DNA of 64,000 nt from Acidobacteriota bacterium (GTDB taxonomy: Bacteria > Acidobacteriota > Blastocatellia > Chloracidobacteriales > JADJPF01). The notes under the pieces are model-generated. The model searched no databases, had not been told where the DNA came from, and saw only the letters and a program-made list of their open reading frames with translations. The stretch is taken from assembly GCA_017303955.1 (NCBI GenBank), contig JAFLBC010000021.1, forward strand, positions 15,810 to 79,809, in the 5' to 3' direction. The position numbers and the translations under genes were made by a program. Shown here piece by piece: positions 5,579 to 33,827 of the stretch (its first letter is position 1; every line of letters starts with the position of its first letter).

Positions 5579-5792
5579 GTTTTTAATGCTTTTTATTGTG
5601 TCAAAATCCCCAAATTTAATTCTTAACCACCATTAATGCCATCTACTTATAAGTGCTACTCAATTTCTATGCCAAGTTTTTCAACTTAAAGCCAAAATAA
5701 ATTTTTTATGAGTTGATTTTGTGGTAACTTCCAAAACAACTTTTGCTAGAAAAACTAGAGTTCTAGTTTTAATTCTATTTTATGGAGATTTA

Positions 5793-8198
5793 ATGAGTGT
5801 AACCCCCTTAAAACCAGAGCAGTTATATCAACATTGTGATCCAGCAATTTTTCCTTTTAATACTAGCGATGAATTAGAAGAATTAATGGAAATTATTGGG
5901 CAAACTAGGGCAATAGAAGCAATAAGGTTTGGAATAAATATTAAACAAGAGGGTTATCACCTTTTTGCTTTAGGTTCTTCAGCAATAGCTAAACAATCTG
6001 TGATAAGACATTTTCTTACACAAAAAGCAAGCCAAGAAATAACCCCTTATGACTTATGTTATGTAAACAATTTTGAAAAACCAACTCACCCTAAACTCTT
6101 AACTTTGCCTCCAGGCAAAGGATTAGAACTACATAAAGACATAGTCCAATTAATAGAAGAGTTGTATGCTGACGTACTTGCTGCACTTAAAAGTGATGAA
6201 TATCGAAGCCGTAAATCAGCCATCAAGAAAAAACTCAAATCACAACAAGACAAAGCCTTCCAAGCTTTACAAAAACGCGCTAAAGCTAAATCTATTACTT
6301 TAATGCAAACTCCAGAAGGAGTAGTTTGTGTTCCAACTAAAAAAGGGCAAGTAATTACTCCAGAAGAATATGAAAAACTTTCGGAAAGTGAACGTGAAGA
6401 GATAGAAGAAAAAATAAAAATCTTTACAGAAGAATTTATAAATCTAACACATAAAGAACTACAATGGCAAAAAGAGACAAGAAAAAAGATAAAAGAGCTT
6501 AATAAAGCAATTATTTCATTAGCTGTAGGCAATTTAGTTGATGAACTTAAGAAAAAATATATAGATTTACCTGCTATTATTGATTATTTGTCAGCAATGC
6601 AAAAAGATATGATTGATAATTCAGGTGTTTTTCTAAGCAATGGTAAACCTTCAGAAAAAACTTTTTCCGTTAAAACAAGAGCCTCACAACATAAAAATTT
6701 ATCATTACTAGCTCGTTACCAAATAAATTTGCTAGTAGAACATAGCCAAAACCTAGGCGCACCAGTTATTTATGAAAATAACCCTACCTACCATAATTTA
6801 TTTGGTCAGATTGAACATAAAACCCATTTAGGGTCATTAGTAACAGATTTTAGTTTAATTAAAGCTGGTGCATTACAAAAAGCTAATGGAGGCTACTTGA
6901 TACTAGACGCAGACAAAGTTTTAACTCAACCTTATGCTTGGGAAGGTCTAAAACGAGCTTTATTTTCTAATATACTTAAAATAGAATCACTAGAACAAAT
7001 AGTAAGTTTAATTAGCACTGTTTCTTTAAGTCCAGAACCTATTACGCTAAAAATTAAAGTTGTATTATTAGGCGAAAGAGAACTTTATCACTTACTTTAT
7101 CAAGTAGATCCAGAATTTAAAGAACTATTCAAAGTAGCAGTAGATTTTAGCGAAACCATGAACCGCAGCCAAGAAACTCAACTTCTTTATGCCAAAATGA
7201 TTGCTAATTTAGGTCGAAAAGAAAATTTATTACCCTTTAATCGTCAAGCAGTTGCAAGGATAATAGAACAAAGTTCGCGTCTTGTTGGTAATTCAGAAAA
7301 ATTATCTACTCATATGAAAACAGTTTTAGATCTAATGAGAGAATCCGATTATTGGGCAAAAGAATTTGACAATAAAATTATTGGTATTAGAGATGTAGAA
7401 CAAGCCATAGAAAAGCAAATACAACGAGTTAATCAATTTCAAGAAATTTTACAAGAACAAATTAGCAAAGGGCTGCTTTTAATAGACACTCAAGGGGAAA
7501 AAATAGGTCAAATTAATGGTCTTTGTGTTGTCCAAATAGGCAATTTTTCCTTTGGTTATCCAACACGTATTACAACTTCTGTTCGTTTAGGAAAAGGTGA
7601 ATTTATTGATATTGAACGAGAAGTTGAATTAAGCGGCCCAATTCATTCTAAAGGTGTGCTGATATTAGCCGGGTTTCTAGGCTCTCGTTACGCGATTGAT
7701 AAACCTCTATCATTAAAAGCTAGTCTTGTTTTTGAGCAATCTTATAATTTAGTAGATGGTGACAGTGCTTCATCAGCAGAGCTTTATGCTTTGCTATCAG
7801 CCTTAGCCGATTTACCAATCAAACAATCTTTAGCCGTTACAGGTTCAATTAATCAACGTGGTCAAGTACAGGCTATAGGCGGAGTAAACGAAAAAATAGA
7901 AGGATTTTTTGATATATGCAACCAACGAGGATTAACCGGCCATCAAGGAGTTTTAATTCCATCATCTAATGTTAAAGATTTAATGCTAAAAAAAGAGGTA
8001 ATAGAAGCTGTAAGAAATAATCAATTTTATATTTATCCAGTAGAAAATATTGACCAAGGCATAGAACTTTTAACAAGCACAAAAGCAGGTGAAAGAGCCA
8101 TTGACGGCACTTTCCCAGAAGGAACCGTTAATTATAAAGTAGAGAAAAAGCTATTAGAGTTAGCAAAAAACCGCTTAGAATTTAGTAAAATTATGTAG
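5793..8198 (+). CDS. LonC-like (LonB-related) protease with degenerate ATPase motifs and a large coiled-coil insertion
   Basis: N-terminal LonB-family region (IIGQTRAIEAIRFGINI...GYHLFALGSSAIAKQS) in which the Walker A position is degenerate (GSSAIAKQS instead of GxxGxGK[ST]). Long charged coiled-coil insert (KSDEYRSRKSAIKKKLKSQQDKAF...EEIEEKIKIF). C-terminal Lon proteolytic domain with a Ser-Lys dyad context (DGDSASSAELYALLSAL...; ...NEKIEGFF). Start chosen at the ATG after GGAGA (MSVTPLKPEQL); the ORF opens at 5721. Confidence 0.7.
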   Translation: MSVTPLKPEQLYQHCDPAIFPFNTSDELEELMEIIGQTRAIEAIRFGINIKQEGYHLFALGSSAIAKQSVIRHFLTQKASQEITPYDLCYVNNFEKPTHPKLLTLPPGKGLELHKDIVQLIEELYADVLAALKSDEYRSRKSAIKKKLKSQQDKAFQALQKRAKAKSITLMQTPEGVVCVPTKKGQVITPEEYEKLSESEREEIEEKIKIFTEEFINLTHKELQWQKETRKKIKELNKAIISLAVGNLVDELKKKYIDLPAIIDYLSAMQKDMIDNSGVFLSNGKPSEKTFSVKTRASQHKNLSLLARYQINLLVEHSQNLGAPVIYENNPTYHNLFGQIEHKTHLGSLVTDFSLIKAGALQKANGGYLILDADKVLTQPYAWEGLKRALFSNILKIESLEQIVSLISTVSLSPEPITLKIKVVLLGERELYHLLYQVDPEFKELFKVAVDFSETMNRSQETQLLYAKMIANLGRKENLLPFNRQAVARIIEQSSRLVGNSEKLSTHMKTVLDLMRESDYWAKEFDNKIIGIRDVEQAIEKQIQRVNQFQEILQEQISKGLLLIDTQGEKIGQINGLCVVQIGNFSFGYPTRITTSVRLGKGEFIDIEREVELSGPIHSKGVLILAGFLGSRYAIDKPLSLKASLVFEQSYNLVDGDSASSAELYALLSALADLPIKQSLAVTGSINQRGQVQAIGGVNEKIEGFFDICNQRGLTGHQGVLIPSSNVKDLMLKKEVIEAVRNNQFYIYPVENIDQGIELLTSTKAGERAIDGTFPEGTVNYKVEKKLLELAKNRLEFSKIM

Positions 8199-8201
8199 AC
8201 T

Positions 8202-9488
8202 TTATAAGCTACTGTTACATTCTTTTAAAAAAGTAACAAAGTTTCTAGCTTGTTCAAAAATGTTCTCAACTTTTAGTGGATCAGGACGCATACCACAGTG
8301 CATTAAATCATTGCGAAGATCTATTGTTGACCATGCTTTATAAAAAGCATCGGTTTTGTCAATATTATTAATTTGTTCTATCATTAATATTGGTTTTACA
8401 AAGCTTTTCCCTTCTTCTTTCTTTTTCTTTTTTTCTTTTTTCCAATGATAGTAATTGTTAATACCGTCTTCTATTAGAGATCTATGATCTTTAGCTAAGT
8501 AATTATGCCATGGCTTTAGTCCAAGAGCCTCACTAGCCCAGGAAATTAACCATTCTCTTCCTAGAGACACAGCTTGCGAAATATGGTTATGATTTATATA
8601 CCATTCTATTAGTTTAAGTTGTGTTGTTAAGTCTGTGTTTTCAAAGTTTTTATATTCTTGTTGAATTCGATCAAATAAAACTAAGATTGGTTTAGCAGAG
8701 AGTTCAGCTTCTATTTTAGCTTTTTCATCATTTAAATTTTTTTCTAATCTTTCAACATTTTTACTTATTTCTATTGGGCGAACTAATAATAGACTTTTTG
8801 ATAAAGTGTCCAATATATTTCCTAGCTCTTTTAAAGATTTAGCAAGCGTTTTCTTACCTTCAATTTTTTGTTCTACAGGCAAATTTTTTAAATTTTCCAA
8901 TTGATTATCATGTGGAATTTTAATTAATTTTCCGATTTGGCTAGAATCACCTGTTTTAACAAACTGATCTGTTGCTGTAATCCAATCTAATAAATTAACA
9001 AATTCTGTTAAGTTGAAAGTAGGAGATAGATTATTATTTTTATCCCTTGCGTCAAAAGCACCATAAAGTAAATACTCAACATTGATGTTTTTAGCGACAC
9101 GTAAATATGAAATAGCTAGTAAAGATAAAAGAGGTAGAGAACGAAAACCATGTGTTATATCAAATACAAGTTCATCACTTTGTTCAATGTATTTTGTTAA
9201 TCTAGAAAATATTTGCCAAAGTTCTGTTTCATTACTACCACTAGGTATGTTAACTACAAAAGGTGTATAGTTAAATTTTGTTTCTAATAAACTTTTTAAT
9301 TCTTTCCAGTTATTGTGATTTTCTGCTTCTTCTGTCAATAATACTAAAACCTTTTCTGGTTTGAGCCAATTGGCAAGAGCCTCAGGAAAAAATTTTGTTT
9401 TATATTCTAACTTCTCTGATGCGTCTTTTTCCCAAAAATAATTTGTTTCTTGATAGTTACCTGTACCTAAAAATGTAATTAATTTCAT
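8202..9488 (-). CDS. csx1: CRISPR-associated CARF-HEPN ribonuclease, Csx1/Csm6 family
   Basis: N-terminus MKLITFLGTGNY resembles CARF-domain starts. C-terminal R-x4-H HEPN motif RNDLMHCG matches the Csx1 pattern (cf. RNVLAHAG). It is the last gene of the cmr operon. About 430 aa is typical Csx1 size. Confidence 0.7.
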   Translation of the reverse strand: MKLITFLGTGNYQETNYFWEKDASEKLEYKTKFFPEALANWLKPEKVLVLLTEEAENHNNWKELKSLLETKFNYTPFVVNIPSGSNETELWQIFSRLTKYIEQSDELVFDITHGFRSLPLLSLLAISYLRVAKNINVEYLLYGAFDARDKNNNLSPTFNLTEFVNLLDWITATDQFVKTGDSSQIGKLIKIPHDNQLENLKNLPVEQKIEGKKTLAKSLKELGNILDTLSKSLLLVRPIEISKNVERLEKNLNDEKAKIEAELSAKPILVLFDRIQQEYKNFENTDLTTQLKLIEWYINHNHISQAVSLGREWLISWASEALGLKPWHNYLAKDHRSLIEDGINNYYHWKKEKKKKKEEGKSFVKPILMIEQINNIDKTDAFYKAWSTIDLRNDLMHCGMRPDPLKVENIFEQARNFVTFLKECNSSL

Positions 9489-9526
9489 AAAATATACTCC
9501 AAAAATTTATAAATCATTTCAAATGT

Positions 9527-10573
9527 TCAACTAGCAGAATAATTTTTAAACTTTTCATACCAAGATTTATCTTTAAACTTTTTCTTATCAACTTCGTCGG
9601 CTCTTTTTATTATTACTTCAGCCACTTTTAGTTTTTGACTAGGTTCTGTTATATCTTCCCATTTTTTAATATAATTGCCAATTTCACCAGCAAATCTATT
9701 ATTTGGTAAATTATTAATTGCCATTATCATAGGATCTTCTATTTTAGTTTCTTTTTTTTCTAATACTGCTACTGACTGATTTTCTACAGATATTTTTCTT
9801 TCAGGAATTTCTAATTCCATACGACCATATCCGCTAGATGTTTTTGCTCCAACACCTAATTCTTTTAATGCTTCTTTTAGTATGTCAAAAGTTAAACTTA
9901 CCCAATCTTCTGGGCCTGATAATGCAATTAAATATTCTCCTGTAGCAGTAAGAAATGAAATAGGCGTTGTGCTGTCCCAATCTGCTGGTGCAAGATTTTT
10001 ATCTTGATAATAATCTTGGTGGTGGACTGTGATTACATCAGCATGTAAAGCTTGTTTATTAATTCCACTATCAGGAACATAAAGCGCGTCATAAAATGTA
10101 ACAAAACCTGCTGCTTCTTTAATGTCGTTTTTCTCGTCTGTAGAAGTGCCAAACACAGTTACATAATTAGAAGAAGTTTGTTCCCAACCATGTAAATAAT
10201 CTCTTGCATAACTAGCCGCTACACCTTTTAATGCACTAGCAGGAATATAAGGCACGCCATAAGTATGATATAGCTTTATAGAAGTTTCTAAAACGCTTTC
10301 TGTGCCAAGTCCAACAGCCATACGGCCTTGAACCGTAGCTTTACCAGTTTGCACATCTGAAATTTGCTCTAAAGTTTGCTTCCAGCGTTGATAAAATTTT
10401 GTGTAAATTTCTGGTTGAGCAATTGTTCCTACTTCATTGACTAATCTAGTTTTTGGTTGCTCATTGTTATTGGTTGATTCTTGTTGAGTTGTAAGAAACT
10501 TATCTAGCCAAAGACCTGCATGGTTAGCTATTGGTTTATCTAAATTAACAAAGACATTTCGGCGACTACTCAT
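9527..10573 (-). CDS. cmr6: Type III-B CRISPR RAMP protein Cmr6
   Basis: N-terminal NHAGLWLDKFL motif characteristic of Cmr6. Glycine-rich loop GVGAKTSSGYGRM near the C-terminus. Position after cmr5. Confidence 0.85.
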   Translation of the reverse strand: MSSRRNVFVNLDKPIANHAGLWLDKFLTTQQESTNNNEQPKTRLVNEVGTIAQPEIYTKFYQRWKQTLEQISDVQTGKATVQGRMAVGLGTESVLETSIKLYHTYGVPYIPASALKGVAASYARDYLHGWEQTSSNYVTVFGTSTDEKNDIKEAAGFVTFYDALYVPDSGINKQALHADVITVHHQDYYQDKNLAPADWDSTTPISFLTATGEYLIALSGPEDWVSLTFDILKEALKELGVGAKTSSGYGRMELEIPERKISVENQSVAVLEKKETKIEDPMIMAINNLPNNRFAGEIGNYIKKWEDITEPSQKLKVAEVIIKRADEVDKKKFKDKSWYEKFKNYSAS

Positions 10574-10608
10574 AACTATTTCCTCTAATTTGTTTTAGTT
10601 ATTTATGT

Positions 10609-10956
10609 TTAGTTTAATAAAGCTTGTGCAAAGCGTTTATACCAAGATAGCGCAGCTAAAACATCTCTAGTTAATTTCATATACTCAGCTAATTCAGCCA
10701 TGCGACTTCTTTCTAGCAATTGATTTTTATCTGTTCCTATAGTTGTTGCTAAATGGGTTAACAACAATTTCCAAGCTTGTTCATTTGATGAGTTTGCTTT
10801 GGCATCAACAAAAGATAAGGCTTGAGCTAGACCAGCACTATGAATTAAAACAGGCAATTTGTCTGTCATAGTTTTATACTTGCTTTTTTCTGAATCTTTT
10901 ACGTTTTTTACATTTTCATAAGCACTGCTTGCATATTTTTGATTTCGAGTTGGCAT
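10609..10956 (-). CDS. cmr5: Type III-B small subunit Cmr5
   Basis: 115-aa alpha-helical protein with an LPVLIHSAGLAQALSFV-type motif, lying between cmr4 and cmr6. Confidence 0.7.
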   Translation of the reverse strand: MPTRNQKYASSAYENVKNVKDSEKSKYKTMTDKLPVLIHSAGLAQALSFVDAKANSSNEQAWKLLLTHLATTIGTDKNQLLERSRMAELAEYMKLTRDVLAALSWYKRFAQALLN

Positions 10957-10973
10957 AGTTTTTTCCTCCTAGC

Positions 10974-11861
10974 TTACTGGTTTATTAATTTGACTGAGCA
11001 TAAGCCATGACCAACGGTTGCTTTACCGCCAAATTGCACAGTTTTGTTAGTTATTGTTGTAATAGCTTCAAAGACTTTGTTGGTAGTTATCTCTGCTTTC
11101 TTAGTAGGGTTAGCAATGACTAAGCCAGACAAAATTGTTTCTGTTGGCAAGGTTTCTTCATACCAAAGATTTTCTGCTGTTTTAGATTCATCATTTATAA
11201 CAATTCTTGCAGAAACTTCTGTTGCAGTTTCTAACAAAAAGCTTAATAAATCATCTGACACAATGCAAAAACGCTTTTTAAGCATATCTTGCCATTCTGG
11301 AGAGTCAGCAAAAATTCTTGGTGCTAGCCAATCAGCCCAATTGCTAGCTTTTACAACTTCAGTATTATTATTGCTTGGAGTTAAATCTAAATCTTCTAAA
11401 AATACCTTGCTATTATTGTTAACACCATGTTTTAGACAACTAGTTGTTATTACTAAACAAGAGGTTTCTTCTAATATTGTAGGATTTGCAGGCAAATTAT
11501 TTATTCCTGCTACCTTAGCATCACGAACAAATCTTTGTAGAATGTAAGGCGAAGTCACCCAAGCAAATGTTCCTACAAGGCTACGAATAGGCAACAACAA
11601 CAAACGTTGATCAGAAAATTGCACAGATCCAGCATGTTCCATAGTTTGAGATTTTTCTTCATTCCCAGTTCCAAAAATACTTTTTTGTTGTTTTTCGTCT
11701 GTGCAAAGATCTCGCAAACTGCCTTTTACAGATGAACCGGGCAAAAAAGGTATTCCAGTAGCTTTTTCTCTAGCGATAGGCAAATCAATTACACCAATTC
11801 CTTGGCCTGTACCAGCGTGCAAAGGCGATAGTGCATGGACAAAAGCTAAACGCGCTTCCAT
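10974..11861 (-). CDS. cmr4: Type III-B backbone RAMP Cmr4 (Cas7 family)
   Basis: N-terminal ...LSPLHAGTGQG..IDLPIARE..TG.PFLPGSSVKGSLR, the hallmark of Cmr4. C-terminal glycine-rich loop GGKATVGHG. Confidence 0.9.
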   Translation of the reverse strand: MEARLAFVHALSPLHAGTGQGIGVIDLPIAREKATGIPFLPGSSVKGSLRDLCTDEKQQKSIFGTGNEEKSQTMEHAGSVQFSDQRLLLLPIRSLVGTFAWVTSPYILQRFVRDAKVAGINNLPANPTILEETSCLVITTSCLKHGVNNNSKVFLEDLDLTPSNNNTEVVKASNWADWLAPRIFADSPEWQDMLKKRFCIVSDDLLSFLLETATEVSARIVINDESKTAENLWYEETLPTETILSGLVIANPTKKAEITTNKVFEAITTITNKTVQFGGKATVGHGLCSVKLINQ

Positions 11862-11906
11862 AAAAATTTCTCCTTGGTTATAAAAAATCTTTTGAAATAA
11901 TTAAAC

Positions 11907-13313
11907 TTATAGCTTATTTAGAAAAGCTTTAAGAACATCTGTTTCATTACCTAAAAGCTTAGTTTTATTGTCTGGTTTAAGTATTTGACCAGCCTCAGTT
12001 GTATTTAACTTAACTGCAAGGTTAGGCCAGCTTTCATTTTTTTGTTGTGTTGTTCCAGTAGCCTCATTTGTTTTTAATTCAACTTGAGCATTATCTAAAA
12101 GGCGTTGTGTTCCTTCTAAAATGGCGGCTAAACCTACATAACCATTGCTGCATTTAATTGGCCGTAAGATAAGCGGGCTTGCTAATCTGTCAGATTCAAT
12201 TCCACTTCCAGATAAAATAAGCATTGTTGTTCTTGGATCAAAACTTGAGTCATAAGGATTATTACGGTTATAATCATCAGGGTTAAACTGGAAAATTATT
12301 GGTAGACCAAATGCTGCACGAGGAAATTTGTTTAATTTATTTATTGGAGAATGTGAGCTTGTATGTTGTCCTGTTAAATCCCTTATATAATCAGGTTCAG
12401 GCCATCGGCTACGACCTGGGCGATTAGGTTTTGAGCCGGGATTACGTTCTTGGCGAAATTCTTTTAGAGTTTTTATTAAGTAACTCCAAACATCAGTAGC
12501 TTTGGTAGAATTTGGTCTTGGAACAGATTTATGAGCTAAATTTTTAGTTAGATGTGGCAAATCTGAAGGCCATTTTACAACGTCAACAACATGTTTTTTA
12601 AGTTGTTGGCTAATAAAACTTTCAAAGTTATTAATTGCTGGCAAAGTTACAGGTTTTTGATCAATTGAAAGTAATGAAATAGCTCCAAAACCTCGTCTAG
12701 TCCTTGCTCCAATGCCGCCAAAAGTTTCCCATGCCCAAAGAGCAGCTTCTACATCAGTTTGTAAATCTTTTGGGAACTTTATTTCTAATATAAAAGAAAC
12801 ATTTTCTTTTATGGGTGTTGTTGGCATATTGACATAAATTGTTCTTTGTTCTGGTCTTAAGGGAAAAGCAGCATAAGAAGGTGCAACATTTTCAATATTT
12901 TTTATTTGTGGAATAGGTTTGCCATTTCTATATTCAGGTTTGCCATCCTTGATTTTTTGGATAACTTCAAAAGGCTTAACAGCTTTTCCATGGTCTTTAA
13001 CCTTAACAAAAACTTGTACTTTTGAAGCAGGCTTTTCACCTTTTTTATCTTTGCTAGCTGTTCCCCAAATCGCGTCTTCTGCTTTTTTCATTTGTTCTAA
13101 ATCTGCAAATGCTCCACCACGACAAGCACGCCACCAAAAACGCAGTTGTCCACGAATGCTTGAACCACGAATTGTTGTTATTGGGTCGGCTTCGCCTGCC
13201 TTGACTCCACCGCCAAATAAAGGTGTGATTAATTCATATTTACGTTCTTGAGTAATGATTTGTGATTTAACAAGTTTTTCAATTTTACTTGGGGCTTTAG
13301 GTGCTACTCTCAT
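11907..13313 (-). CDS. cmr1: Type III-B RAMP Cmr1
   Basis: ITPLFGGG...IRGSSIRGQLRFWWRA, the typical RAMP N-terminal motif of Cmr1, with a G-rich loop FGGIGARTRRGFG. The ORF extends to 13349, but the start is probably the ATG overlapping the cmr3 stop (MRVAPKAP...). Confidence 0.75.
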   Translation of the reverse strand: MRVAPKAPSKIEKLVKSQIITQERKYELITPLFGGGVKAGEADPITTIRGSSIRGQLRFWWRACRGGAFADLEQMKKAEDAIWGTASKDKKGEKPASKVQVFVKVKDHGKAVKPFEVIQKIKDGKPEYRNGKPIPQIKNIENVAPSYAAFPLRPEQRTIYVNMPTTPIKENVSFILEIKFPKDLQTDVEAALWAWETFGGIGARTRRGFGAISLLSIDQKPVTLPAINNFESFISQQLKKHVVDVVKWPSDLPHLTKNLAHKSVPRPNSTKATDVWSYLIKTLKEFRQERNPGSKPNRPGRSRWPEPDYIRDLTGQHTSSHSPINKLNKFPRAAFGLPIIFQFNPDDYNRNNPYDSSFDPRTTMLILSGSGIESDRLASPLILRPIKCSNGYVGLAAILEGTQRLLDNAQVELKTNEATGTTQQKNESWPNLAVKLNTTEAGQILKPDNKTKLLGNETDVLKAFLNKL

Positions 13314-14509
13314 TATTTCACCTCCATTATTTCGTTTTCTCCTGACCAAGTGCCTAGCACGGCTAAACCAAAACTGTCTAAGCGGCTTTGTTCATCGTCG
13401 CTAATTGCAGTTAGCCAGATTTTATCAATCCAAGTTTCTAGCTCTTTTTCATCTGTCATCTTCTCATCAAACTTTAAGAAAAACACTGTTCCAGCAGGTG
13501 CTAAACGTCGCGTAGCTTTGGGCTTGTTAGTTTCAAAGTCCCAGCCAGAGATGACTTGAGGACGCTCTACACGAATGGCTTTTATTTGTGCAGTTAAAGT
13601 TTTGTGAGGTGTTATCAAATATTCAGGTTGACAAATATTCTTAAAATGGCCTGGTGTTAACAGCAACACTCTACAAGCTTTTGTGCAAAGAATTTGTTTT
13701 TTAATTTGGTCAGGACATTTAGCAAAAGGTATTGAATCGTTGTTTTTATGCCAATTGACTATTCGTCTTTCACCGCCAAGCATAGCAACACCTTCGCGTA
13801 AATTAGCGTCAGTTTGCACAGCTAAAGCTAGACGAGTTAAATTAGCAAGTTTTTTATCAGCTTGTTTTTGATAAGTAAATTCTAAGCCTTGTGTTTGAAA
13901 TAACGCGCCTTCTCTAGCAGTTTGGCTTTCATTCAAAATGCTTACATGTGTTCGTATATCTAAACTTGGCCCTTTATGCCCAAGATCAGAGAGATTAACA
14001 TCTAGCTTATCTTGAGCGTTATTTAACCACTCTTCAAGCTTTTTCCAATACCAAAACCTAGGTGCAAATTTATGTGTTTTGCTAGGGTCGGCTTTAGTCA
14101 TACCAACCAAAGAAAGGTTTGTTTGTAAATCAGTAAAGCTATCTTCAGGCATGTTTATTGGTACAAGTTTTTTTATATTGCCTCTAGTTTCATCAATTTT
14201 AGTTTTATTATTTGAGTCATTATTAAGAATTACTAAATCTATTGGTGCAGGAGTTAACCAATTTTGAATATTGCCTTGTTCATCAAGTTCAACTAAAAAA
14301 GGCCCTTTTATAACAATTTGTTTTACTTCATTGATTTTTGCTGTTTGAAAATGGCCTTGTGCGTCTAGTCCAGCACGGGTGCGAACTCCGCCAGCAATTG
14401 TTGATGGGAAAGGAAAACTTAAGCTAGCGGCTCTCGCGCCAGGATCACCAAACGGGCGACCATCACGAAAAATAATTGGGTCACGGGGTTCAAGTATCCA
14501 AACAGTCAT
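13313..14509 (-). CDS. cmr3: Type III-B Cmr3 (Cas5-group RAMP)
   Basis: N-terminus ILEPRDPIIFRDGRPFG...SLSFPFPSTIAGGVRT matches the conserved Cmr3 signature. Lies immediately downstream of cmr2. Confidence 0.85.
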   Translation of the reverse strand: MTVWILEPRDPIIFRDGRPFGDPGARAASLSFPFPSTIAGGVRTRAGLDAQGHFQTAKINEVKQIVIKGPFLVELDEQGNIQNWLTPAPIDLVILNNDSNNKTKIDETRGNIKKLVPINMPEDSFTDLQTNLSLVGMTKADPSKTHKFAPRFWYWKKLEEWLNNAQDKLDVNLSDLGHKGPSLDIRTHVSILNESQTAREGALFQTQGLEFTYQKQADKKLANLTRLALAVQTDANLREGVAMLGGERRIVNWHKNNDSIPFAKCPDQIKKQILCTKACRVLLLTPGHFKNICQPEYLITPHKTLTAQIKAIRVERPQVISGWDFETNKPKATRRLAPAGTVFFLKFDEKMTDEKELETWIDKIWLTAISDDEQSRLDSFGLAVLGTWSGENEIMEVK

Positions 14510-14512
14510 AAA

Positions 14513-16255
14513 TTAGTCTCCCTTTCCTTTAGAAATTAATTTTTCAACTTCAGCAAAAATGCGAGCAACTACAAGTTCATCAGCTAGATCTTTGATGGAA
14601 ACTTTGTCTTCATCAATTCTTTTTTCAATGTTTGTTAAAACATCTTTATCTACTTTTTTGCGTCTAAAAATTCTTTTCGCTTCTACTTTAATTAAATCTT
14701 TTAAGTTAGCTGTATCACCTAAACTTAAAACTAAATCTCTTAATTCATAAGCCACCCCGTCAGGAATTTGACCATTTGCATGCAATGTGATCCAATTTTT
14801 TAGACGGTCATCTATTTCGCCCCAACTTCCTTTGACTGTTAAATCCACACCAGCACGTTTGCTTACAGTCACAGCCAAAGCATTTTTGCCAGCTACACTT
14901 TTAGCAGCTTTTTCTGCTGCTCTTGCTAAATTTAACGAATCGCTAAGAGGATCCAAATGATGGACAATCGCAACTCCAACAGAAAGAGTAGGAGAATCAT
15001 TGTCATTAGGACTTTTTTTAGGAACGGGAAAACCTTTTAATTTTTCTTTGAAATCTTGGTTTAGTTCACACGCACAATCTAAAATTGTATATATTGGCAC
15101 AAAAGCCAGCACATCATCACCACCTGCATAAACAAGTGAACCTTTATGCTCTGCTACAATTTTTCGGACATTGCTAGCAAATCGACTTAAAGCTTGAGAA
15201 ATTTTTCTGTGTGCTTCAGGAGTTTTTTGGTTGTCAATAGCTTCACCCATTCTATCACCGTCGCCTAAAAGCAGCCCGTAATAGGGGCTTGGGCGTTTGT
15301 CAGCAAGATTGCAACTTTTATAAAATTCGTTTAGTGCTTTTTTAGCTTGTTTTAGTTTCTCATCTTCATTTTTAGCAAAAAAATCAACTAATCTTTCTTC
15401 AAACAAAATATGTCCATCATAATTTTCAAAAACAGGATGAGGATCTCCTGGCACATTTCCCAGTTCACTTTCAAGACCAAAATCTTGTTTTAAGGTAAGA
15501 ATATATTTTCTTACAGCAGTTTTATGCTCTTCTTTTAGCAATTCTAAAAATGGCAAAGATGCTACGTGAGATGTAGAAAAGAATCTATCTTTCCCTTTTC
15601 GCCGTTCTCCATGACGTTTTAATAAGCCTACTCCGCAAAGCTTTTCACTAGGTTTAATCCGACATTGACGAAGGAGTTCTTTTTCAGGAAATCTAGTAGG
15701 ATCAATAACAGCTTCACGTTGTCCATCTAATGATGATTTTGGAACACCAGCCTTTCCCCAAGAAACAGCATTATAATTTTTAGTAGCTTTTCGTGCCGCC
15801 ATTAGAGCTTCTGCTTGTTTGCGAGTTTCAACATATTTTTCTAAGCTCTCTAATTTTGTAGCTACCCAGAAAAACTCTAGCATGTCCGCTATTTGTGCAT
15901 CTGCGGTTTTATTATCAAAATATCCTCGAAGATTTTTCAAGCCATCTTCTTTAATTTCATTAAGTCGAGTTTTTACATTAGTTAGAGCTTGTTTACAAAT
16001 TTCTTCAGGATTATTTTTAACAATTGCTACTATTTTGTTTGCCACATCAAAACTAATATCAGGCTCTAAATCAGATAATTCTGTTGGAGCAGGGAAAATT
16101 AAGTTCTCAATGCCTTCTTTTTCCGCAATGCTATGAGCAGCCGTTTTTGAAAGCTCACTAAGTAGCCAAGAACCAAACCAAAGATCCCGACTTCGCCTAG
16201 CAGTGATAATAAAATCCTGCACTGGGCCGATATGAATAATAATTAAGTATTCCAT
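14513..16255 (-). CDS. cmr2: Cas10/Cmr2 large subunit lacking the HD nuclease domain (Cmr2dHD-like); cyclase GGDD motif retained
   Basis: Starts directly with IGPVQDFIITARRSRDLWFGSWLLSEL, the conserved start of the Cmr2 body after where an HD domain would be. First palm motif LLLGDGDRMGEAI. Second palm motif VYAGGDDVLAFVP. Only 580 aa. Confidence 0.9.
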   Translation of the reverse strand: MEYLIIIHIGPVQDFIITARRSRDLWFGSWLLSELSKTAAHSIAEKEGIENLIFPAPTELSDLEPDISFDVANKIVAIVKNNPEEICKQALTNVKTRLNEIKEDGLKNLRGYFDNKTADAQIADMLEFFWVATKLESLEKYVETRKQAEALMAARKATKNYNAVSWGKAGVPKSSLDGQREAVIDPTRFPEKELLRQCRIKPSEKLCGVGLLKRHGERRKGKDRFFSTSHVASLPFLELLKEEHKTAVRKYILTLKQDFGLESELGNVPGDPHPVFENYDGHILFEERLVDFFAKNEDEKLKQAKKALNEFYKSCNLADKRPSPYYGLLLGDGDRMGEAIDNQKTPEAHRKISQALSRFASNVRKIVAEHKGSLVYAGGDDVLAFVPIYTILDCACELNQDFKEKLKGFPVPKKSPNDNDSPTLSVGVAIVHHLDPLSDSLNLARAAEKAAKSVAGKNALAVTVSKRAGVDLTVKGSWGEIDDRLKNWITLHANGQIPDGVAYELRDLVLSLGDTANLKDLIKVEAKRIFRRKKVDKDVLTNIEKRIDEDKVSIKDLADELVVARIFAEVEKLISKGKGD

Positions 16256-16721
16256 AGCACAACCTGTAAATGAAAATTAATTAAATTGTTATTATGAAAA
16301 AGTAATATGCTATTTTTGCTAGACGCAAAATTTACATAACTTTTTACTAATAATCAACTACTTAATCTTAAAAAGATAAAATTACTATTTATAGCTTTTT
16401 AACTAAAGCATTATTTGTATTTTTATTGGGATTCTAAAACAAAATTGGCAGATTAAAAGAGCCAGCAAGCTTGCTGAGTGGAAAATTTTTAGGGTTTATG
16501 TTGTCTATTTAGCTACTCTCATTTTCTGACTGCTGCTAAATTCCCAAACTCTAGTTAATCCTTGGGAAATGTAAGTAATATAGATTCGTGAGAGTTTTTT
16601 AGGGGTTTTTGACATTTTTTTCATAGAACTTTTTTGCAGGTTAAGCAAAAACACCCAAATTATGCTAGGAATATATCTTGCATGTTAAATGGGTTAGCAT
16701 GATTATGGAGGTTAAACTGTT

Positions 16722-17486
16722 ATGAAAAAGGTAATAAGCTTGTTGATCCTTAGAATAGCTATTATTAGTTCTCTAATAATAGCTACTACGCTAGGTGTAA
16801 CAGCACAGTGGAACAACCCGTATTGGGGAACAAGTTGGAATAATCCTACATCAAGCCTACTGCAAACTATGACTATGAATAAAGTTTTTGCCGATAGTAT
16901 GAGAAAACCGTTTGAGCAAAGAGGCAAAGCTTTAGATCAAAGGTCGATACCAAAGCAAAATAAACTTACTCCATACCAGCAAAAATCTGTAACTTTCTTG
17001 CCTGTTGCTAATATGATTATGCCAAAACAGCTAGCTGAAACGATTGGAGCAACACCCAAGGATCGCAAAGAACTTCAAAAAGCATTTACCGAATTTTTGC
17101 AGGTTTTCGACCAGGAAGCCGCTTTAGACAAAGAAGAAAATAATGTTGCTCGTGCAGTCACTTTTTTTATTGTTTGTAACTACATTGTTGCTACAGGCTT
17201 GGAGTTTGAGGAAGAGCAGATCAATTTTATGGAGAGAGATATAAATATTTACCTAGCGGAAAACGAGTATTTTTGCGCCTTCGATAACCACAGGAAGCAA
17301 GAACTTTATGAAAGCTTGGTCATTCTTGGCACCCTTGCTGCCGCAGGCTATCATGACGGAGAGGAAAACGGACGAAAAGAGCAAATGGAGAGATTCCGCT
17401 CTTTAGCACGTAATGGCTTGGAAACCTTGCTAGGTGTACCTGTTGAAAGGTTGAAATTAACAAAAGTAGGGTTGGTTATTAAATAG
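16722..17486 (+). CDS. Hypothetical secreted protein
   Basis: Signal peptide (LLILRIAIISSLIIATTLGVTAQ). GGAGG RBS 8 nt upstream. No recognisable domain. Divergent from the cmr operon. Confidence 0.5.
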   Translation: MKKVISLLILRIAIISSLIIATTLGVTAQWNNPYWGTSWNNPTSSLLQTMTMNKVFADSMRKPFEQRGKALDQRSIPKQNKLTPYQQKSVTFLPVANMIMPKQLAETIGATPKDRKELQKAFTEFLQVFDQEAALDKEENNVARAVTFFIVCNYIVATGLEFEEEQINFMERDINIYLAENEYFCAFDNHRKQELYESLVILGTLAAAGYHDGEENGRKEQMERFRSLARNGLETLLGVPVERLKLTKVGLVIK

Positions 17487-17699
17487 TTTTACTTCTGCTC
17501 GAATAATCCATTTCTATCAGATTTGCCTTTTTAATGTCTTCTTGTTTTTTTCCTTAACTCTAACAGAAATAGAATAAAGGGAAACAAAAGGATATTACGA
17601 TACAACTCAATAAGCAAATCATACAAAATCAATAGTTTATCTATTAAAACATCTCAATTCTTGAGAGTTTTCTAATGATTAAGTAGTTTTATCTAAAAC

Positions 17700-17742
17700 C
17701 AAAAATGCAGCCGTGCTACAAACAACAGGGCTGCATTTTGAC
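17700..17742 (-). terminator. Rho-independent terminator downstream of the OmpA-family gene
   Basis: Hairpin aatgcagcc-N16-ggctgcatt. On the minus strand it is followed by TTTTTGGTTTT. Confidence 0.6.
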
Positions 17743-17754
17743 TTGTAATCTATA

Positions 17755-18603
17755 TTATTGTTTGACTAGTTCTACACGGCGGTTTTCTGCGCGACCTTCC
17801 TCAGTATCGTTGCTTGCTATAGGAGCTAAGGGGCCGACACCGCGGCTAATAAGGCGACTTGCAGAAATACCGTGTTGTGTAATGAGTGCTTGCACTACTG
17901 CTTCAGCACGGGCATGGGAAAGCCTCATATTTAGATCCAGCGAAGCAATATTATCTGTATGACCTACTACATAGACCTTCAATGCTAAGTCTGCTTTCAG
18001 CAATTTGGCAATTTCGGTTACTGCGTTGTCTGATTCAGGTTTCAACTCAGATTTTCCTGTATCAAAGTAAATTCCTGGAACCTCAACGTGTCCACTAGTT
18101 CTAAGGCTAGTTTTAAAGATTTCTGCACTTGAAGTTACTTCCTGGGTCATTGCTTCCTTTTCGATAATGGTTAGCATATAGCCTTTTCCCCAAGCAGTGT
18201 CAAGCAATGCCCAGACTTCCTTACCATTCTTAGCTACTTTCAGAACTGTATAGCGTTTATCTTCAAAAAGTGTTGTTCCACCGATTTGAGCGATAGCTTG
18301 CTGATGATTACGTATGATCTGCAAGGGTGAAGGGGCTACTGTAGCATCAGTCTTATATCTAATTTCAAAGCGTTTTCCTTCTACAGCAGTTTCGGTTGTC
18401 TTTCCAGTTTTAAAAGCAAATCGGTCAAAAGCGACTGTTTTGCAATATTCTATATGCATGTCCTGCATGCGAGTAAAAAGCGGATGGTCTTGGCAGCCAG
18501 CTTTATCTGGACTCTGAGACAATACAATACTACAAAACAAAAAAATCCAAATGATGAGAACATGGATGGAAACCAATAGAGATTTTAATTTAGTACATTG
18601 CAT
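17755..18603 (-). CDS. OmpA-family protein (C-terminal OmpA peptidoglycan-binding domain)
   Basis: N-terminal TM/signal segment. C-terminal OmpA-like domain ...YFDTGKSELKPES...VVGHTDNIASLDLNMRLSHARAEAV...NRRVEL. Confidence 0.8.
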   Translation of the reverse strand: MQCTKLKSLLVSIHVLIIWIFLFCSIVLSQSPDKAGCQDHPLFTRMQDMHIEYCKTVAFDRFAFKTGKTTETAVEGKRFEIRYKTDATVAPSPLQIIRNHQQAIAQIGGTTLFEDKRYTVLKVAKNGKEVWALLDTAWGKGYMLTIIEKEAMTQEVTSSAEIFKTSLRTSGHVEVPGIYFDTGKSELKPESDNAVTEIAKLLKADLALKVYVVGHTDNIASLDLNMRLSHARAEAVVQALITQHGISASRLISRGVGPLAPIASNDTEEGRAENRRVELVKQ

Positions 18604-18888
18604 ATGATGCCTCCAGTCAAAAGTTGCTCATTGTTTTGCTTAATACATCAATTACTTACAATAACTACAAAAACAAGACTTCCAAAATCGTCCCACAACT
18701 TTGCTGATGTGCTTCTATACTTAAAGCAATGAGTATGCCTAATACTAAGCTTATAAAAATGGGTGGTTATATTTTGTATATGGGTTATATTTCCCAAAAT
18801 TGAAGAATAATTGGGGGAATTAACTGTAGTGATTGCAATGTCTATTGACCATATTTAATACTCCAAAGTATTTTTGTTTGAAGTTTAT

Positions 18889-30652: not shown

Positions 30653-30874
30653 AATCTCCTAAAAGAATTTAAGCCTTATATATATGAATTGTTTATAGTA
30701 ATGCCGAAAGCTACTAAGAGTCAATTAAAGTCAACCATTAGAATTAATAAAAATAAAAACTAAAGAAAACCTTTTTGTTTTTATCCAACCTTGCTTTATT
30801 AAATTATCACTTTCATAATAGTTAATCCTTAGACTTTGTTCTCTAAATTTTTACTATATAAGAAAGGATGTTTT

Positions 30875-33172
30875 ATGGCAGAAAGAGATGTCCGGGAACG
30901 GGATATTTTAGTTGCTCCTAATGAATATGCTTATGTACAAGACTTAACTAAAGGAGACATTATCCTTTATGTAGGCCCTACTAAAATAAGTCTTTCCAAT
31001 ACAGAACGCTTGGTTGAATATTATGAAGGTCGGTTTATCCCAATTCGAGGAGAAGAAGGAGGTGTTGGAGTCAAACCTTTTATTATTGCTTCTTCCTCAA
31101 AATATATAATTTTAGAAAATCCTCCTAAAGATACTAGCGCAAAACCAATTAAAGGTGCTAATTATTCCATAGAATTACTTATAGGTAGAAAAGTTGTTGT
31201 TTCCGGCCCAGCGGCTTTTCCACTCTGGCCCGGACAAATGGCAGAAGTAATTGATGGTCACGAATTAAGAGAAGACCAGTATTTAATAGTAAGAGTTTAT
31301 GATAGGGTAGAGGATGATAATAGTCCTATTGGTACAGAAAAAGTTATTAAGGGTATAGATGTTAGTTTTTATATTCCCAAAACTGGCCTAGAAGTTGTTC
31401 CAGATGAAAAAGATGATTATGTACGAAGTGCTGTTACTTTACTTGATGGAGAATACTGTATTTTACTTTCTCCAAATGGTAAAAAGACTTATTTTAGAGG
31501 CCCAGCAGTAGTATTTCCAGAAGCCACTGAAGAATTTGTAGAAAAAGATGGTGAACGAGTATTTAAGGCACATCATTTAAGAAAAAATATGGGCTTACAT
31601 GTCCAGGTGATAAAAGATTTTCAATCCGATGGAAAAGATCAAGTTCCAATGGGTTCTTATACAGCAGGACAAGAAATTTTTCTTAAAGATAAAGAAGGAT
31701 TTTTCTTTCCTAGTGAAAATTTAGAAGTAGTTAGCGAAGTTTATTCTATTCCAATTGCAGAAAAAGAAGGAATTTATGTAAGAGAGATTGAGACAGGAAG
31801 AATTTCTACAGAAGTAGGGCCAAAAAATTACTTACCAGATCCTACAAAAGTAGACATCATTACTCGACAACTGGACAAAGAAACTATGCGGCTATATGGG
31901 CTTATTGAGCGAAATTCCCAGCTTGTACCTGCACAAAATATGATTTCACAAGTGGAAATGGAAGAAAAACGAGGCAGAAAAAATGTTGCAGTCCAACGTT
32001 TTGCCAATGTCATAGGCCCAAAAGCGGCTGAATATGACACAACTAAAGCTATTTCAATTTATATTCCTCCAAGTTTTGCTGTACTTGTTACAGCAAAAAA
32101 TAAACGTGAAGTTGTAAAAGGGCCTCAAACCCGGATTCTAGATTATGATGAAGACCTGGAAGTTTTACGACTTTCTACAGGTAAACCAAAAACAGATGAA
32201 TATTTGCTTACAACTTGTTTTTTGCAAAAAGATGGTAATAAGGTTTCGGATATTGTTAAAGTCAAAACAAGTGACCATGTTGAGTTAGAAGTTTTGCTTT
32301 CCTACAGAGTTTCTTTTCTTAGTAAAGGAGATCAGCAGGATGAAAAATGGTTTAATGTAAAAAATTATGTTGGTTTACTTTGTGACCATTTAGGCTCAAT
32401 TGTTCGTGGAACTGTAAGAAATACCTCTATAGATGCTTTTCATGCAAATAGTACAGAAATAATTCGCACTGCTATTTTAGGTGATAAGCGCGAAGGAAAG
32501 CGTGTTGGGCGACTTTTTGAAGAAAATAATATGTGGGTTTATGATGTAGAAGTTTTGGATGTTAAGATTTTAGATTCAGACGTTAATAAGTTACTTTCCG
32601 ATGCTCAACGAACAGCAATTGTTTTTGAAGTTAATAGCAAACAAGAGTATATGCGCTTAAATAGTGAAAAAATTAAAGAAGAAGTAAATCAACAAATTTA
32701 TCAAACTCAAATGGCTACAGTAGAAAAAGCTATTGCGCTTGAAAATGTTAAAAAAGAACTAGTTCTTACAAAAGCACAACTTAATATTGATACTGACAAA
32801 CTAGAAACAGTTGGTAAGGCTAAAAATAGGGCCGAAGCAATAGAAATCACTGGAGTTAAACAAATTGAGTTAGCTAAACAACAAGCTGAAGTAGACCAAC
32901 ATATCTTAGCTAGCAAAGTTGCTGCTTTTAAGGAAGAAATGGCTGCTTTAGCTCCAGAACTTGTTACAACTCTAAAAGTTTTGGGAGATCAACAACTTGC
33001 TACAGAACTAACAAAAAATCTTTCTCCCTTAGCAATACTTGGTGGTGAAAGCGTTGCAGAAGTGGTTCAACGTCTATTAAAAGGCTTGCCTATAGGTATA
33101 AATCTGGATAATAACGGTGATGCTAAAGCTGTTGGGCAATTACAAAAGCCATCAGAAGAGAAGAAAAAATAA
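30875..33172 (+). CDS. Major vault protein (MVP) homolog
   Basis: Three motif matches to human MVP. N-terminal MVP-repeat: ILVAPNEYAYVQDLTKGDIILYVGPTKISLSNTERLV (cf. [37 protein letters not shown]). Repeat 8/9 region: EKEGIYVREIETGRISTEVGP (cf. ENEGIYVQDVKTGKVRAVIG). Shoulder domain: FHANSTEIIRTAILG (cf. FHKNSARIIRTAVFG). This is followed by an SPFH/cap-helix-like coiled coil. Start taken at MAERDV after the AAAGGA RBS; the ORF opens at 30836. Confidence 0.85.
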   Translation: MAERDVRERDILVAPNEYAYVQDLTKGDIILYVGPTKISLSNTERLVEYYEGRFIPIRGEEGGVGVKPFIIASSSKYIILENPPKDTSAKPIKGANYSIELLIGRKVVVSGPAAFPLWPGQMAEVIDGHELREDQYLIVRVYDRVEDDNSPIGTEKVIKGIDVSFYIPKTGLEVVPDEKDDYVRSAVTLLDGEYCILLSPNGKKTYFRGPAVVFPEATEEFVEKDGERVFKAHHLRKNMGLHVQVIKDFQSDGKDQVPMGSYTAGQEIFLKDKEGFFFPSENLEVVSEVYSIPIAEKEGIYVREIETGRISTEVGPKNYLPDPTKVDIITRQLDKETMRLYGLIERNSQLVPAQNMISQVEMEEKRGRKNVAVQRFANVIGPKAAEYDTTKAISIYIPPSFAVLVTAKNKREVVKGPQTRILDYDEDLEVLRLSTGKPKTDEYLLTTCFLQKDGNKVSDIVKVKTSDHVELEVLLSYRVSFLSKGDQQDEKWFNVKNYVGLLCDHLGSIVRGTVRNTSIDAFHANSTEIIRTAILGDKREGKRVGRLFEENNMWVYDVEVLDVKILDSDVNKLLSDAQRTAIVFEVNSKQEYMRLNSEKIKEEVNQQIYQTQMATVEKAIALENVKKELVLTKAQLNIDTDKLETVGKAKNRAEAIEITGVKQIELAKQQAEVDQHILASKVAAFKEEMAALAPELVTTLKVLGDQQLATELTKNLSPLAILGGESVAEVVQRLLKGLPIGINLDNNGDAKAVGQLQKPSEEKKK

Positions 33173-33197
33173 TTAAATTTCTTAATTGTTAAGAATA

Positions 33198-33228
33198 AAA
33201 AGGTTAATCTTAAAGGTTAGCCTTTTTT
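33198..33228 (+). terminator. Rho-independent terminator after the MVP gene
   Basis: aaaggttaa-N7-ttagccttt hairpin (one G-U pair) followed by TTTTTT. Confidence 0.55.
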
Positions 33229-33329
33229 ATTTGCCGGAAAATATTAAAAAATTTTTCTTAAATAAAAGACAGATTTTTCTGCATAAACGCATCTACAACT
33301 AAAAAATAATCTTATAGGAGTATAAATTT

Positions 33330-33740: not shown

Positions 33741-33827
33741 TTTATAAAAATTCTCCCTAAAACGAAATTTTGGCCTTACCAATTTAATCAGAAAACTTTG
33801 TTTACAGTATACTAAATAATTTTAATC

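Follow-up and report, generated by a model that had tools for sequence, protein, structure and literature searches.

A seven-gene Cmr operon

The window (the whole stretch of DNA analysed, 64 kb) comes from the MAG of a mesophilic, low-GC, wastewater-type member of the Blastocatellia/Acidobacteriota. On its minus strand, between positions 8202 and 16255, lie seven contiguous chromosomal genes, which Pfam, NCBIfam and PADLOC profile searches of the window ORFs identified as encoding Cas10/Cmr2, Cmr3, Cmr1, Cmr4, Cmr5, Cmr6 and Csx1. An earlier note on this DNA had described such a minus-strand operon of Cmr1–6 plus Csx1; the ORFs lie exactly where it had put them, and the profile matches agree. 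The features are as follows.

14513–16255, minus strand: cas10/cmr2, 580 aa, HD-less large subunit (Pfam, TIGR02577, PADLOC)
13313–14509, minus strand: cmr3, Cas5-family subunit, 398 aa (Pfam Cas_Cmr3 4e-73; PADLOC Cmr3 5.8e-76)
11907–13313, minus strand: cmr1 (from its probable start), double-RAMP capping subunit (Pfam RAMPs 3.7e-27; TIGR01894; PADLOC Cmr1 2e-33)
10974–11861, minus strand: cmr4, Cas7 backbone and target-RNA-cleaving subunit, 295 aa (TIGR02580 236.4 bits)
10609–10956, minus strand: cmr5, Cas11 small subunit, 115 aa (Pfam Cas_Cmr5 1.2e-30; PADLOC Cmr5 1.6e-31)
9527–10573, minus strand: cmr6, RAMP capping subunit, 348 aa (TIGR01898 128.6 bits; PADLOC Cmr6 4.5e-42)
8202–9488, minus strand: csx1, CARF-HTH-HEPN protein, 428 aa (TIGR02221 134.7 bits; PADLOC CARF2--CARF_HEPN 1.7e-114)
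16256–16721, no strand: AT-rich spacer 5′ of cas10, 466 bp, 28% GC, presumed promoter region

The intergenic gaps measure 3–45 nt, and the cmr3 stop and cmr1 ATG overlap as TAATG, preceded by GGAGGTG. The mechanical ORF for cmr1 runs from a TTG at 13349 to 11907 (480 aa); translation probably begins instead with the ATG at 13313, giving a product of 468 aa, which is also the length of the gene call on L001. The set of Cmr1, Cmr3, Cmr4, Cmr5 and Cmr6 is full, each protein scoring above a Pfam, NCBIfam or PADLOC model; Cmr3 reached 92.8 bits against TIGR01888, under the cutoff of 100.4, but was still clearly matched by the Pfam model. In Cmr6 the TIGR01898 match spans residues 80–253, and the C-terminal extension of ∼95 aa matched no family. 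A promoter scan of the 466-bp spacer gave scores no better than those of shuffles, so the promoter 5′ of cas10 is one that we infer. Tandem Repeats Finder, a direct-repeat search and a custom CRISPR detector found no repeat, array or leader in this spacer. The GenBank annotation of these proteins is already type III-B, and we conclude that the operon is an intact, ordinary type III-B (Cmr) interference module with a Csx1 RNase.

An HD nuclease domain on Cas10 is typical of type III systems, but optional. The protein encoded here was matched by Pfam Cmr2_N (8e-18) and Cas10-Cmr2_palm2 (3e-37), by TIGR02577 (229.6 bits, cutoff 79.4) and by PADLOC Cas10 (2e-103), the PADLOC profiles being matched from their position 2. 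Its N-terminus reads MEYLIIIHIGPVQDFI...RDLWFGSWLLS, with IGPVQDFI at residue 9, and the same motif opens all 18 aligned homologues. The ATG has an in-frame stop 11 codons upstream, and the 466-bp spacer holds no ORF able to supply an HD domain, which bears out the earlier description of this Cas10 as HD-less. Since the whole family of 570–670 aa starts likewise, the sequences indicate that the absence of the domain is ancestral and does not reflect truncation; lacking it, Cas10 would have no ssDNase arm.

The cyclase motifs GDGD (residues 331–334) and GGDD (378–381) are intact, and in an alignment of 18 homologues D332/G333/D334 and G378/G379/D380/D381 are invariant. The statement that ‘both palm motifs’ are kept stands as regards the motifs, but not as regards two palms, as both lie inside a single Palm2 cyclase domain (Pfam Cas10-Cmr2_palm2, residues 325–461). 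Synthesis of cyclic oligoadenylate (cOA) is predicted from these motifs. Cmr4 aligns residue for residue with Pyrococcus furiosus Cmr4 (4wnz_A, 1.2e-42), its D26 falling on PfCmr4 D26, which, from the literature on Pyrococcus Cmr4, we take to be the catalytic residue for target RNA cleavage.

Csx1 exceeds the TIGR02221 cutoff of 76.25 bits and is also matched by the TIGR02549 DxTHG domain, with DITHG at residue 110 (D110 and T112 invariant). The HEPN R-x4-H motif is RNDLMH at residues 392–397, in which R392, N393 and H397 do not vary among 20 homologues. An AlphaFold model (pLDDT 90.4) has a Rossmann-like beta/alpha N-terminal domain, and its best PDB folds are Marinitoga Csx1-Crn2 with cA4 (TM 0.68–0.73, E 1e-14), Sulfolobus islandicus Csx1 (SisCsx1; 2.3e-9) and Thermus thermophilus Csm6. 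These features point to a CARF-HTH-HEPN protein of the TM1812/TIGR02221 family, predicted to be a cOA-activated RNase. A sequence search of the PDB gave no sequence-level match, so ligand specificity is read from fold similarity; on the model, the most likely activator is cA4. That Csx1 is the ‘sole collateral effector’, as the earlier note had it, is more than 64 kb can show, as the rest of the genome may encode further cOA-responsive effectors.

Search for an array, cas6 and adaptation genes

Tandem Repeats Finder, a direct-repeat search, a custom CRISPR detector and Rfam at gathering thresholds all failed to find a CRISPR array in the 64-kb window, and repeats found beside relatives of the operon matched it no better than shuffled controls. 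PADLOC detected no Cas1, Cas2, Cas6 or further Cas effector among the other 40 window ORFs; nor did these ORFs yield a NucC, CorA, SAVED or further CARF match. The earlier report that array, cas6, cas1 and cas2 are missing from the window is therefore sustained, and it extends to the immediate surroundings, as none of them was found on reading 7.5 kb past the left end and 11.8 kb past the right end. These ∼19 kb of flanks were read on nearly identical contigs from other samples. The source contig measures 104 kb, so that the search covered ∼83 kb in total (window plus flanks), all but ∼21 kb of that contig. Closely related syntenic loci were likewise devoid of an array, cas6 or cas1/2 in every case.

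An array in the locus is not required for membership of type III-B, because 20 of 30 relative loci, each with at least 5 kb of upstream and at least 4 kb of downstream sequence, have none nearby; array-less relatives include some on complete chromosomes. Among array-bearing relatives, 16 of 28 repeat consensus sequences terminate in ATTG-N4, presumably the usual type III 5′-handle type.

Relatives and characterized systems

The family of HD-less Cas10 proteins (∼580–620 aa) comprises at least 2,936 members, the best 120 of which are 573–666 aa long save for one 342-aa fragment. Proteins of D. audaxviator, P. thermopropionicum and D. kuznetsovii, annotated as III-B Cas10/Cmr2, are among the matches, and relatives occur in at least 582 GTDB species, Thermus and Herpetosiphon included; both genera would fit a supply of crRNAs from arrays elsewhere in the genome. 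The gene order cas10-cmr3-cmr1-cmr4-cmr5-cmr6 is kept in 53 of 65 complete relative loci, including the Thermus loci L058 and L062, and 17 of the 65 also have a csx1-like gene. The operon in the window matches both this order and the IGPVQxFI..RSRDLWFGSW start of Cas10, and on these sequence traits we assign it to the HD-less Cmr lineage that includes Thermus. The HD-less, array-less configuration is unremarkable: it is the majority state of the lineage, and both features are already in the literature. With the missing HD domain and missing array the norm of its lineage, the operon is not an anomaly, and the value of the check is to keep it from being treated as one; as one more uncharacterized example in a very large, already annotated, often array-less HD-less type III-B family, it matters little in itself.

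Thermus thermophilus has a Cmr2 without an HD domain, and its immunity works through cOA together with the recognition and cleavage of RNA (bioRxiv 10.1101/2023.09.03.556089). Thermus L058 and L062 have a Cas10 of this family and the gene order of the operon here, and L062 has a csx1-like gene adjoining the operon. Nevertheless, identity is only ∼38%, the present operon belongs to a low-GC, mesophilic Acidobacteriota MAG and ends with csx1, and the Thermus loci have arrays within 4–6 kb where none was found here in ∼83 kb. The Vibrio metoecus system (VmeCmr) is likewise HD-less and without adaptation genes, and has been proposed to interfere solely through cyclic-nucleotide signalling; unlike the present operon, which lies on the chromosome with neither Cas6 nor an array nearby and encodes a CARF-HEPN RNase, it is prophage-borne, has its own Cas6f and array, and uses cA3 and the DNase NucC (PMC8682760). 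In the same phylum, the type III-B system of Thermoanaerobaculum aquaticum includes a Csx1 RNase that responds exclusively to cA4 (PMC12993439), and the Cas10 proteins of the Thermoanaerobaculia loci L030, L031 and L042 are family members with 38–42% identity; that Csx1, however, is paired with a CARF adenosine deaminase (CAAD), whereas the operon here has no second CARF effector. Marinitoga Csx1-Crn2 and SisCsx1 share the CARF-HTH-HEPN layout and R-x4-H motif of the window Csx1, which differs in its sequence (14–20% identity) and in lacking the Crn2 ring-nuclease fusion. The closest solved Cas10 is PDB 9arw_A (612 aa, ‘Type III-B CRISPR-associated protein Cas10/Cmr2’), to residues 21–556 of which residues 3–534 of the 580 align with the same HD-less N-terminus, but identity is low and 9arw_A has GGED in place of GGDD.

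Selection, proposed mode of action and the effector slot

In comparison with the syntenic orthologues in L002, dN/dS is 0.18 for cas10 and 0.16 for cmr3, values enclosed by the range of 0.08–0.21 for neighbouring housekeeping genes in the same comparison. The operon is under purifying selection, and at least five related lineages have it at the same place in the chromosome.

We judge it likely that the operon is a functional stand-alone type III-B module of the HD-less lineage that receives crRNAs in trans, cleaves targets through Cmr4 and signals through cOA to Csx1. Cas6 and one or more arrays elsewhere in the genome would provide crRNAs with an 8-nt repeat-derived 5′ handle, to be loaded into Cmr1–6. 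Judging by the intact motifs, once a complementary transcript is bound the Cmr4 backbone (D26) would cut the target and the Palm2 cyclase of Cas10 (GDGD, GGDD) would be switched on, yielding cOA, most likely cA4. Bound by the CARF domain, this messenger would activate the HEPN RNase of the co-transcribed Csx1 for collateral RNA degradation. Supply in trans is suggested by published work, in which type III loci without cas1/cas2 draw crRNAs from the arrays of other systems in the genome (PMC6013697), and by the relatives that have no array nearby.

A decaying relic, whose arrays and Cas6 have been lost and whose Cmr complex is guideless and idle, would also explain the lack of array, cas6 and cas1/2 across ∼83 kb and in the closely related syntenic loci. 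We regard this as improbable, as none of the seven ORFs is disrupted and the catalytic motifs are kept, dN/dS resembles that of the housekeeping neighbours, and the site has been retained in related lineages, among which the effector slot is actively exchanged. Somewhat less probable still is a module that runs without CRISPR-derived crRNA, either on non-CRISPR guide RNAs or in a regulatory, non-defence role. What speaks for it is limited to the missing nearby array and the long-term conservation of the array-less arrangement in related lineages, while array-less Cmr loci are the family majority even on complete chromosomes, use of other arrays’ crRNAs by type III loci without cas1/cas2 is documented (PMC6013697), and nothing sets the proteins apart from canonical Cmr subunits; the suggestion in the earlier note that the complex may act without crRNAs thus finds no support. 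The strongest form of this idea is that the organism and its sister lineages, which keep the array-less operon at one chromosomal site under purifying selection, lack any array or Cas6 and that Cmr is guided by non-CRISPR RNAs or is a guide-independent sensor with swappable CARF effectors; this we rate lowest of all.

A variant of the crRNA-guided, signalling module is unlikely but deserves more weight than these, namely that the messenger is not cA4 (but, for example, cA3, cA6 or SAM-AMP) or that Csx1 is one of several effectors, others lying elsewhere in the genome. The HD-less VmeCmr makes cA3 (PMC8682760), other CARF effectors occupy the same slot in sister strains, and the view of the genome is limited to 64 kb. 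Conversely, the Csx1 model is nearest to cA4-bound Csx1-Crn2, SisCsx1 and TtCsm6, the characterized acidobacterial Csx1 answers to cA4 only (PMC12993439), and, against several effectors, none of the other window ORFs matched NucC, CorA, SAVED or a further CARF protein.

In close relatives the slot 3′ of cmr6 always holds a CARF effector, be it Csx1, CARF-RelE or CARF-DUF2103, and this constancy argues for cOA signalling by the Cmr complex. Near-identical strains, in which the flanking Lon, ABC and MacB proteins are 99–100% identical, yet differ in which of these three CARF effectors fills the slot; they share the same Cmr backbone, with subunits that are mosaically diverged. These strains form a natural comparison set that may serve, if modestly, in studies of type III effector exchange and diversification.

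The Cmr operon and its HD-less Cas10

The earlier note had assigned seven minus-strand genes (8202–16255) to a stand-alone type III-B operon; all seven were recovered with exactly the same boundaries, and searches with Pfam, NCBIfam and PADLOC profiles gave unambiguous identities. The intergenic gaps are 3–45 nt.

Genes of the operon (window coordinates)
14513–16255, minus strand: Cas10/Cmr2; Cmr2_N and Cas10-Cmr2_palm2; TIGR02577, 229.6 bits against a cutoff of 79.4
13313–14509, minus strand: Cmr3; profile searches (Pfam, NCBIfam, PADLOC)
11907–13349, minus strand: Cmr1; profile searches (Pfam, NCBIfam, PADLOC)
10974–11861, minus strand: Cmr4; TIGR02580, 236 bits
10609–10956, minus strand: Cmr5; profile searches (Pfam, NCBIfam, PADLOC)
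9527–10573, minus strand: Cmr6; profile searches (Pfam, NCBIfam, PADLOC)
8202–9488, minus strand: Csx1; TIGR02221/DxTHG; PADLOC CARF2--CARF_HEPN (1.7e-114) and Csx1

The ATG at 13313 is likely to be the cmr1 start, giving a product of 468 aa; it overlaps the cmr3 stop codon as TAATG and is preceded by GGAGGTG, and the gene is called as 468 aa on an identical Logan contig. Identical proteins are already present in GenBank (MBN8725318.1 to MBN8725324.1, from a MAG named ‘Acidobacteria bacterium’) under the labels ‘type III-B CRISPR-associated protein Cas10/Cmr2’ and ‘TIGR02221 family CRISPR-associated protein’, and close relatives carry the label Blastocatellia. A promoter and terminator scan returned 29 sites as compared with 29.5 expected. 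Cmr6 carries a C-terminal extension of ∼95 aa past its RAMP domain (residues ∼255–348, window 9527–9811) that matches no family; tblastn matches span the full length in several relatives (e.g. loci L003, L004 and L009) and the RAMP core only in many others, which suggests that the extension is not universal.

Cas10 begins at MEYLIIIHIGPVQDFI..RDLWFGSWLLS, with an in-frame stop 11 codons upstream, and the 466-bp spacer upstream of cas10 (28% GC) contains no ORF able to supply an HD domain. A hidden or split HD domain upstream was rejected on the grounds of these stop codons and the lack of such an ORF. GDGD (331–334) and GGDD (378–381) are both present, and D332, G333, D334 and G378–D381 are invariant in an 18-sequence family alignment. 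The earlier description of ‘both palm motifs’ needs amending in one respect: the two motifs do not mark separate palm domains, but lie within a single Palm2 cyclase domain (Pfam, residues 325–461). The nearest solved Cas10, 9arw_A, is a Cmr2 of 612 aa whose N-terminus is HD-less in the same way and which aligns to residues 3–534 of the 580 in the query; no publication was found for PDB codes 9ARW, 9Z7Q and 9LQ5.

The HD-less Cas10 is not a truncation but belongs to a very large family, with at least 2,936 proteins matching it at E ≤ 1e-10. The best 120 of these are 573–666 aa long, bar one fragment, and include proteins from Desulforudis audaxviator, Pelotomaculum thermopropionicum and Desulfofundulus kuznetsovii that are annotated as III-B Cas10/Cmr2. 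Relatives are encoded in at least 582 GTDB species, among them members of Thermus, Herpetosiphon, Chloroflexus, Sorangium and Deinococcus; the best match among GTDB representatives shows 79% Cas10 identity.

No arrays, cas6 or adaptation genes in or near the window

No CRISPR-like array emerged from the window with Tandem Repeats Finder, a direct-repeat search, a k-mer CRISPR detector run twice, or Rfam at gathering thresholds. Degenerate or solitary repeats were also rejected, because none of 28 repeat consensus sequences from arrays beside relatives matched the window above shuffled controls. PADLOC detected no Cas1, Cas2, Cas6 or other Cas effector among the other 40 window ORFs, with only a weak CasR-type HTH match. 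Two apparent leads to a Cas6 were dismissed: a weak PADLOC match within Cmr6 (5.5e-4) most likely stems from similarity shared among RAMP-family proteins at the C-terminal end of this domain, and the 254-aa ORF at 16722–17486 is a DUF6683 protein with an apparent signal peptide.

The flanks beyond the window were read from near-identical contigs of other samples: 7.5 kb on the left from L082 (overlap 100% identical) and 8.7 plus 3.1 kb on the right from L083 and L089 (99.7% identical). The left flank holds two-component and kinase genes, the right nuo genes, TPR proteins and a 970-aa protein; neither the left 7.5 kb nor the right 11.8 kb contains an array. The absence of array, cas6, cas1 and cas2 noted earlier for the window thus holds, and extends across ∼83 kb (the source contig is 104,445 bp).

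Related loci and a proposed mode of action

This arrangement is usual for a well-known lineage that is already annotated. All six cmr genes were found in 65 of 80 loci examined, in the window's order (cas10–cmr3–cmr1–cmr4–cmr5–cmr6) in 53 of those 65, and a csx1-like gene lay within the stretch examined in 17 of the loci. Of the 30 loci with upstream and downstream flanks of at least 5 and 4 kb, respectively, 20 had no CRISPR array. Among the 28 repeat consensus sequences from relatives' arrays, 16 end in ATTG-N4 (ATTGAAAC, ATTGCGAC and similar), which we take to be the usual type III 5′-handle type. Published work describes comparable arrangements. Thermus thermophilus Cmr2 has no HD domain, and III-B immunity there is taken to depend on RNA recognition, cyclic oligoadenylate (cOA) and RNA cleavage (bioRxiv 10.1101/2023.09.03.556089); the HD-less Cmr of V. 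metoecus acts purely by cyclic-nucleotide signalling (PMC8682760); and type III systems without cas1/cas2 use adaptation genes and crRNAs from other systems in the same genome (PMC6013697). The earlier interpretation is essentially right, though the configuration is ordinary for the lineage.

The residues on which activity would depend are in place. Cmr4 can be aligned to its P. furiosus counterpart (4wnz_A) residue by residue, and D26 then falls on PfCmr4 D26, the residue responsible for target-RNA cleavage in the Pyrococcus protein. Csx1 carries DITHG at residue 110 and RNDLMH at 392–397, with R392, N393 and H397 unchanged across 20 homologues. A search of Csx1 against PDB by sequence gave no match. 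Its AlphaFold model is confident (pLDDT 90.4, pTM 0.82), and the best PDB fold match is to Marinitoga Csx1-Crn2 with and without cA4 (E 1e-14, TM 0.68–0.73), with S. islandicus Csx1 and T. thermophilus Csm6 also among the best. In the acidobacterium T. aquaticum, cA4 is the only activator of Csx1 (PMC12993439).

Decay of the operon into a relic is unlikely, because dN/dS against the related locus L002 is 0.18 for cas10 and 0.16 for cmr3, inside the range of neighbouring housekeeping genes (0.08–0.21). The locus also occupies one and the same chromosomal site in at least five related lineages (L002, L090, L091, L092–95 and L096), flanked upstream by genes for MFS and SAM hydroxide adenosyltransferase proteins and downstream by a convergent Lon-like protease gene together with ABC/MacB genes. 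The best-supported model is one in which crRNAs would be supplied in trans from arrays and Cas6 elsewhere in the genome; the Cmr4 backbone, with its motif intact, would cut bound target RNA; the Palm2 domain of Cas10, its motifs also intact, would make cOA, probably cA4 (as the fold neighbours of Csx1 and the acidobacterial precedent suggest); and cOA would switch on the HEPN RNase of Csx1, intact in motifs and fold. The DNase arm of Cas10 would be absent, there being no HD domain. Csx1 may share its role with cOA effectors encoded outside the window. A novel reading would be a genome entirely devoid of arrays and of Cas6, and we consider it highly improbable.

Effector slot, mosaic divergence and neighbouring genes

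Between cmr6 and the convergent Lon gene lies a slot in which the CARF effector differs among closely related strains.

Effectors in the slot, by strain contig
Window 8202–9488, minus strand: Csx1 (CARF2-HEPN); Csx1 also in L092–95
L090:12809–13927: CARF7-RelE (PADLOC 1.4e-130)
L091:7078–8145: CARF7-DUF2103 (PADLOC 2.5e-133)
L092:1205–2485: Csx1, only 65% identical to the window Csx1

The L090 protein has what we take to be a Cami1-type architecture. The L091 effector is not significantly similar in sequence to Csx1 of the window, in agreement with the modularity of type III accessory effectors. Because a CARF sensor is found in the slot every time (window, L090, L091 and L092–95), this variation also supports the view that the system can signal.

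The Lon, ABC and MacB proteins of L091 and L092 are 99–100% identical to those of the window, and the L091 flank adjacent to the operon shows 99.3% nucleotide identity. Within the operon itself (window 9527–16255 versus L091:309–7053), amino acid identity is 97% for cmr1, 94% for cmr3, 91% for cmr4, 87% for cas10, 83% for cmr6 and 59% for cmr5; in L092, cmr6 is 94% and csx1 65% identical. Such mosaic divergence between otherwise near-identical strains suggests recombination or diversifying selection inside the operon. A second variable slot lies directly upstream of cas10 (16476–18885). In the window it holds the DUF6683 gene (16722–17486; likely signal peptide) and an OmpA-domain gene (17755–18603), neither of which occurs in L002 or L090; in L096 an ORF6N-domain gene takes their place.

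The convergent gene at 5721–8198 (plus strand) encodes an 825-aa LonC/LonB-like AAA+ protease, its stop codon 3 nt from that of csx1. It was rejected as a CalpL-like CRISPR partner, having no CARF/SAVED domain and only a weak BrxL match. None of the 80 other Cmr loci carries the gene, which is part of the conserved chromosomal flank (L090 and L091 among others) and probably has no relation to the CRISPR module.

The protein encoded at 43894–45081 (minus strand; 395 aa) has a staphylococcal nuclease domain and a hydrophobic N-terminus. It is probably the ORF matching PADLOC family C3a212 (SNc+LTD), whose name suggests a candidate family associated with type III systems; the Cmr operon is ∼28 kb away, and we found no evidence tying the two. 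A cluster at 30836–41388 encodes a bacterial Major Vault Protein homologue (778 aa; MVP shoulder and vault repeat), a VIT-vWA protein (902 aa), a 291-aa ORF and a 1,181-aa Ser/Thr kinase, with a second kinase nearby at 42597–43679. PADLOC matches to PD-T4-6 and mad6, and a further mad3 match, may be due to nothing more than kinase or other generic domains held in common. Finally, the ORF at 52677–53975 contains ∼10 copies of the 9-bp tandem repeat CAAGCTAAC (53601–53689; 97% matches). Its orthologues in contigs L083 and L084 are 402 and 399 aa long, respectively, and the alignment of L084 to the window breaks at the repeat; the copy number therefore appears to vary between strains.
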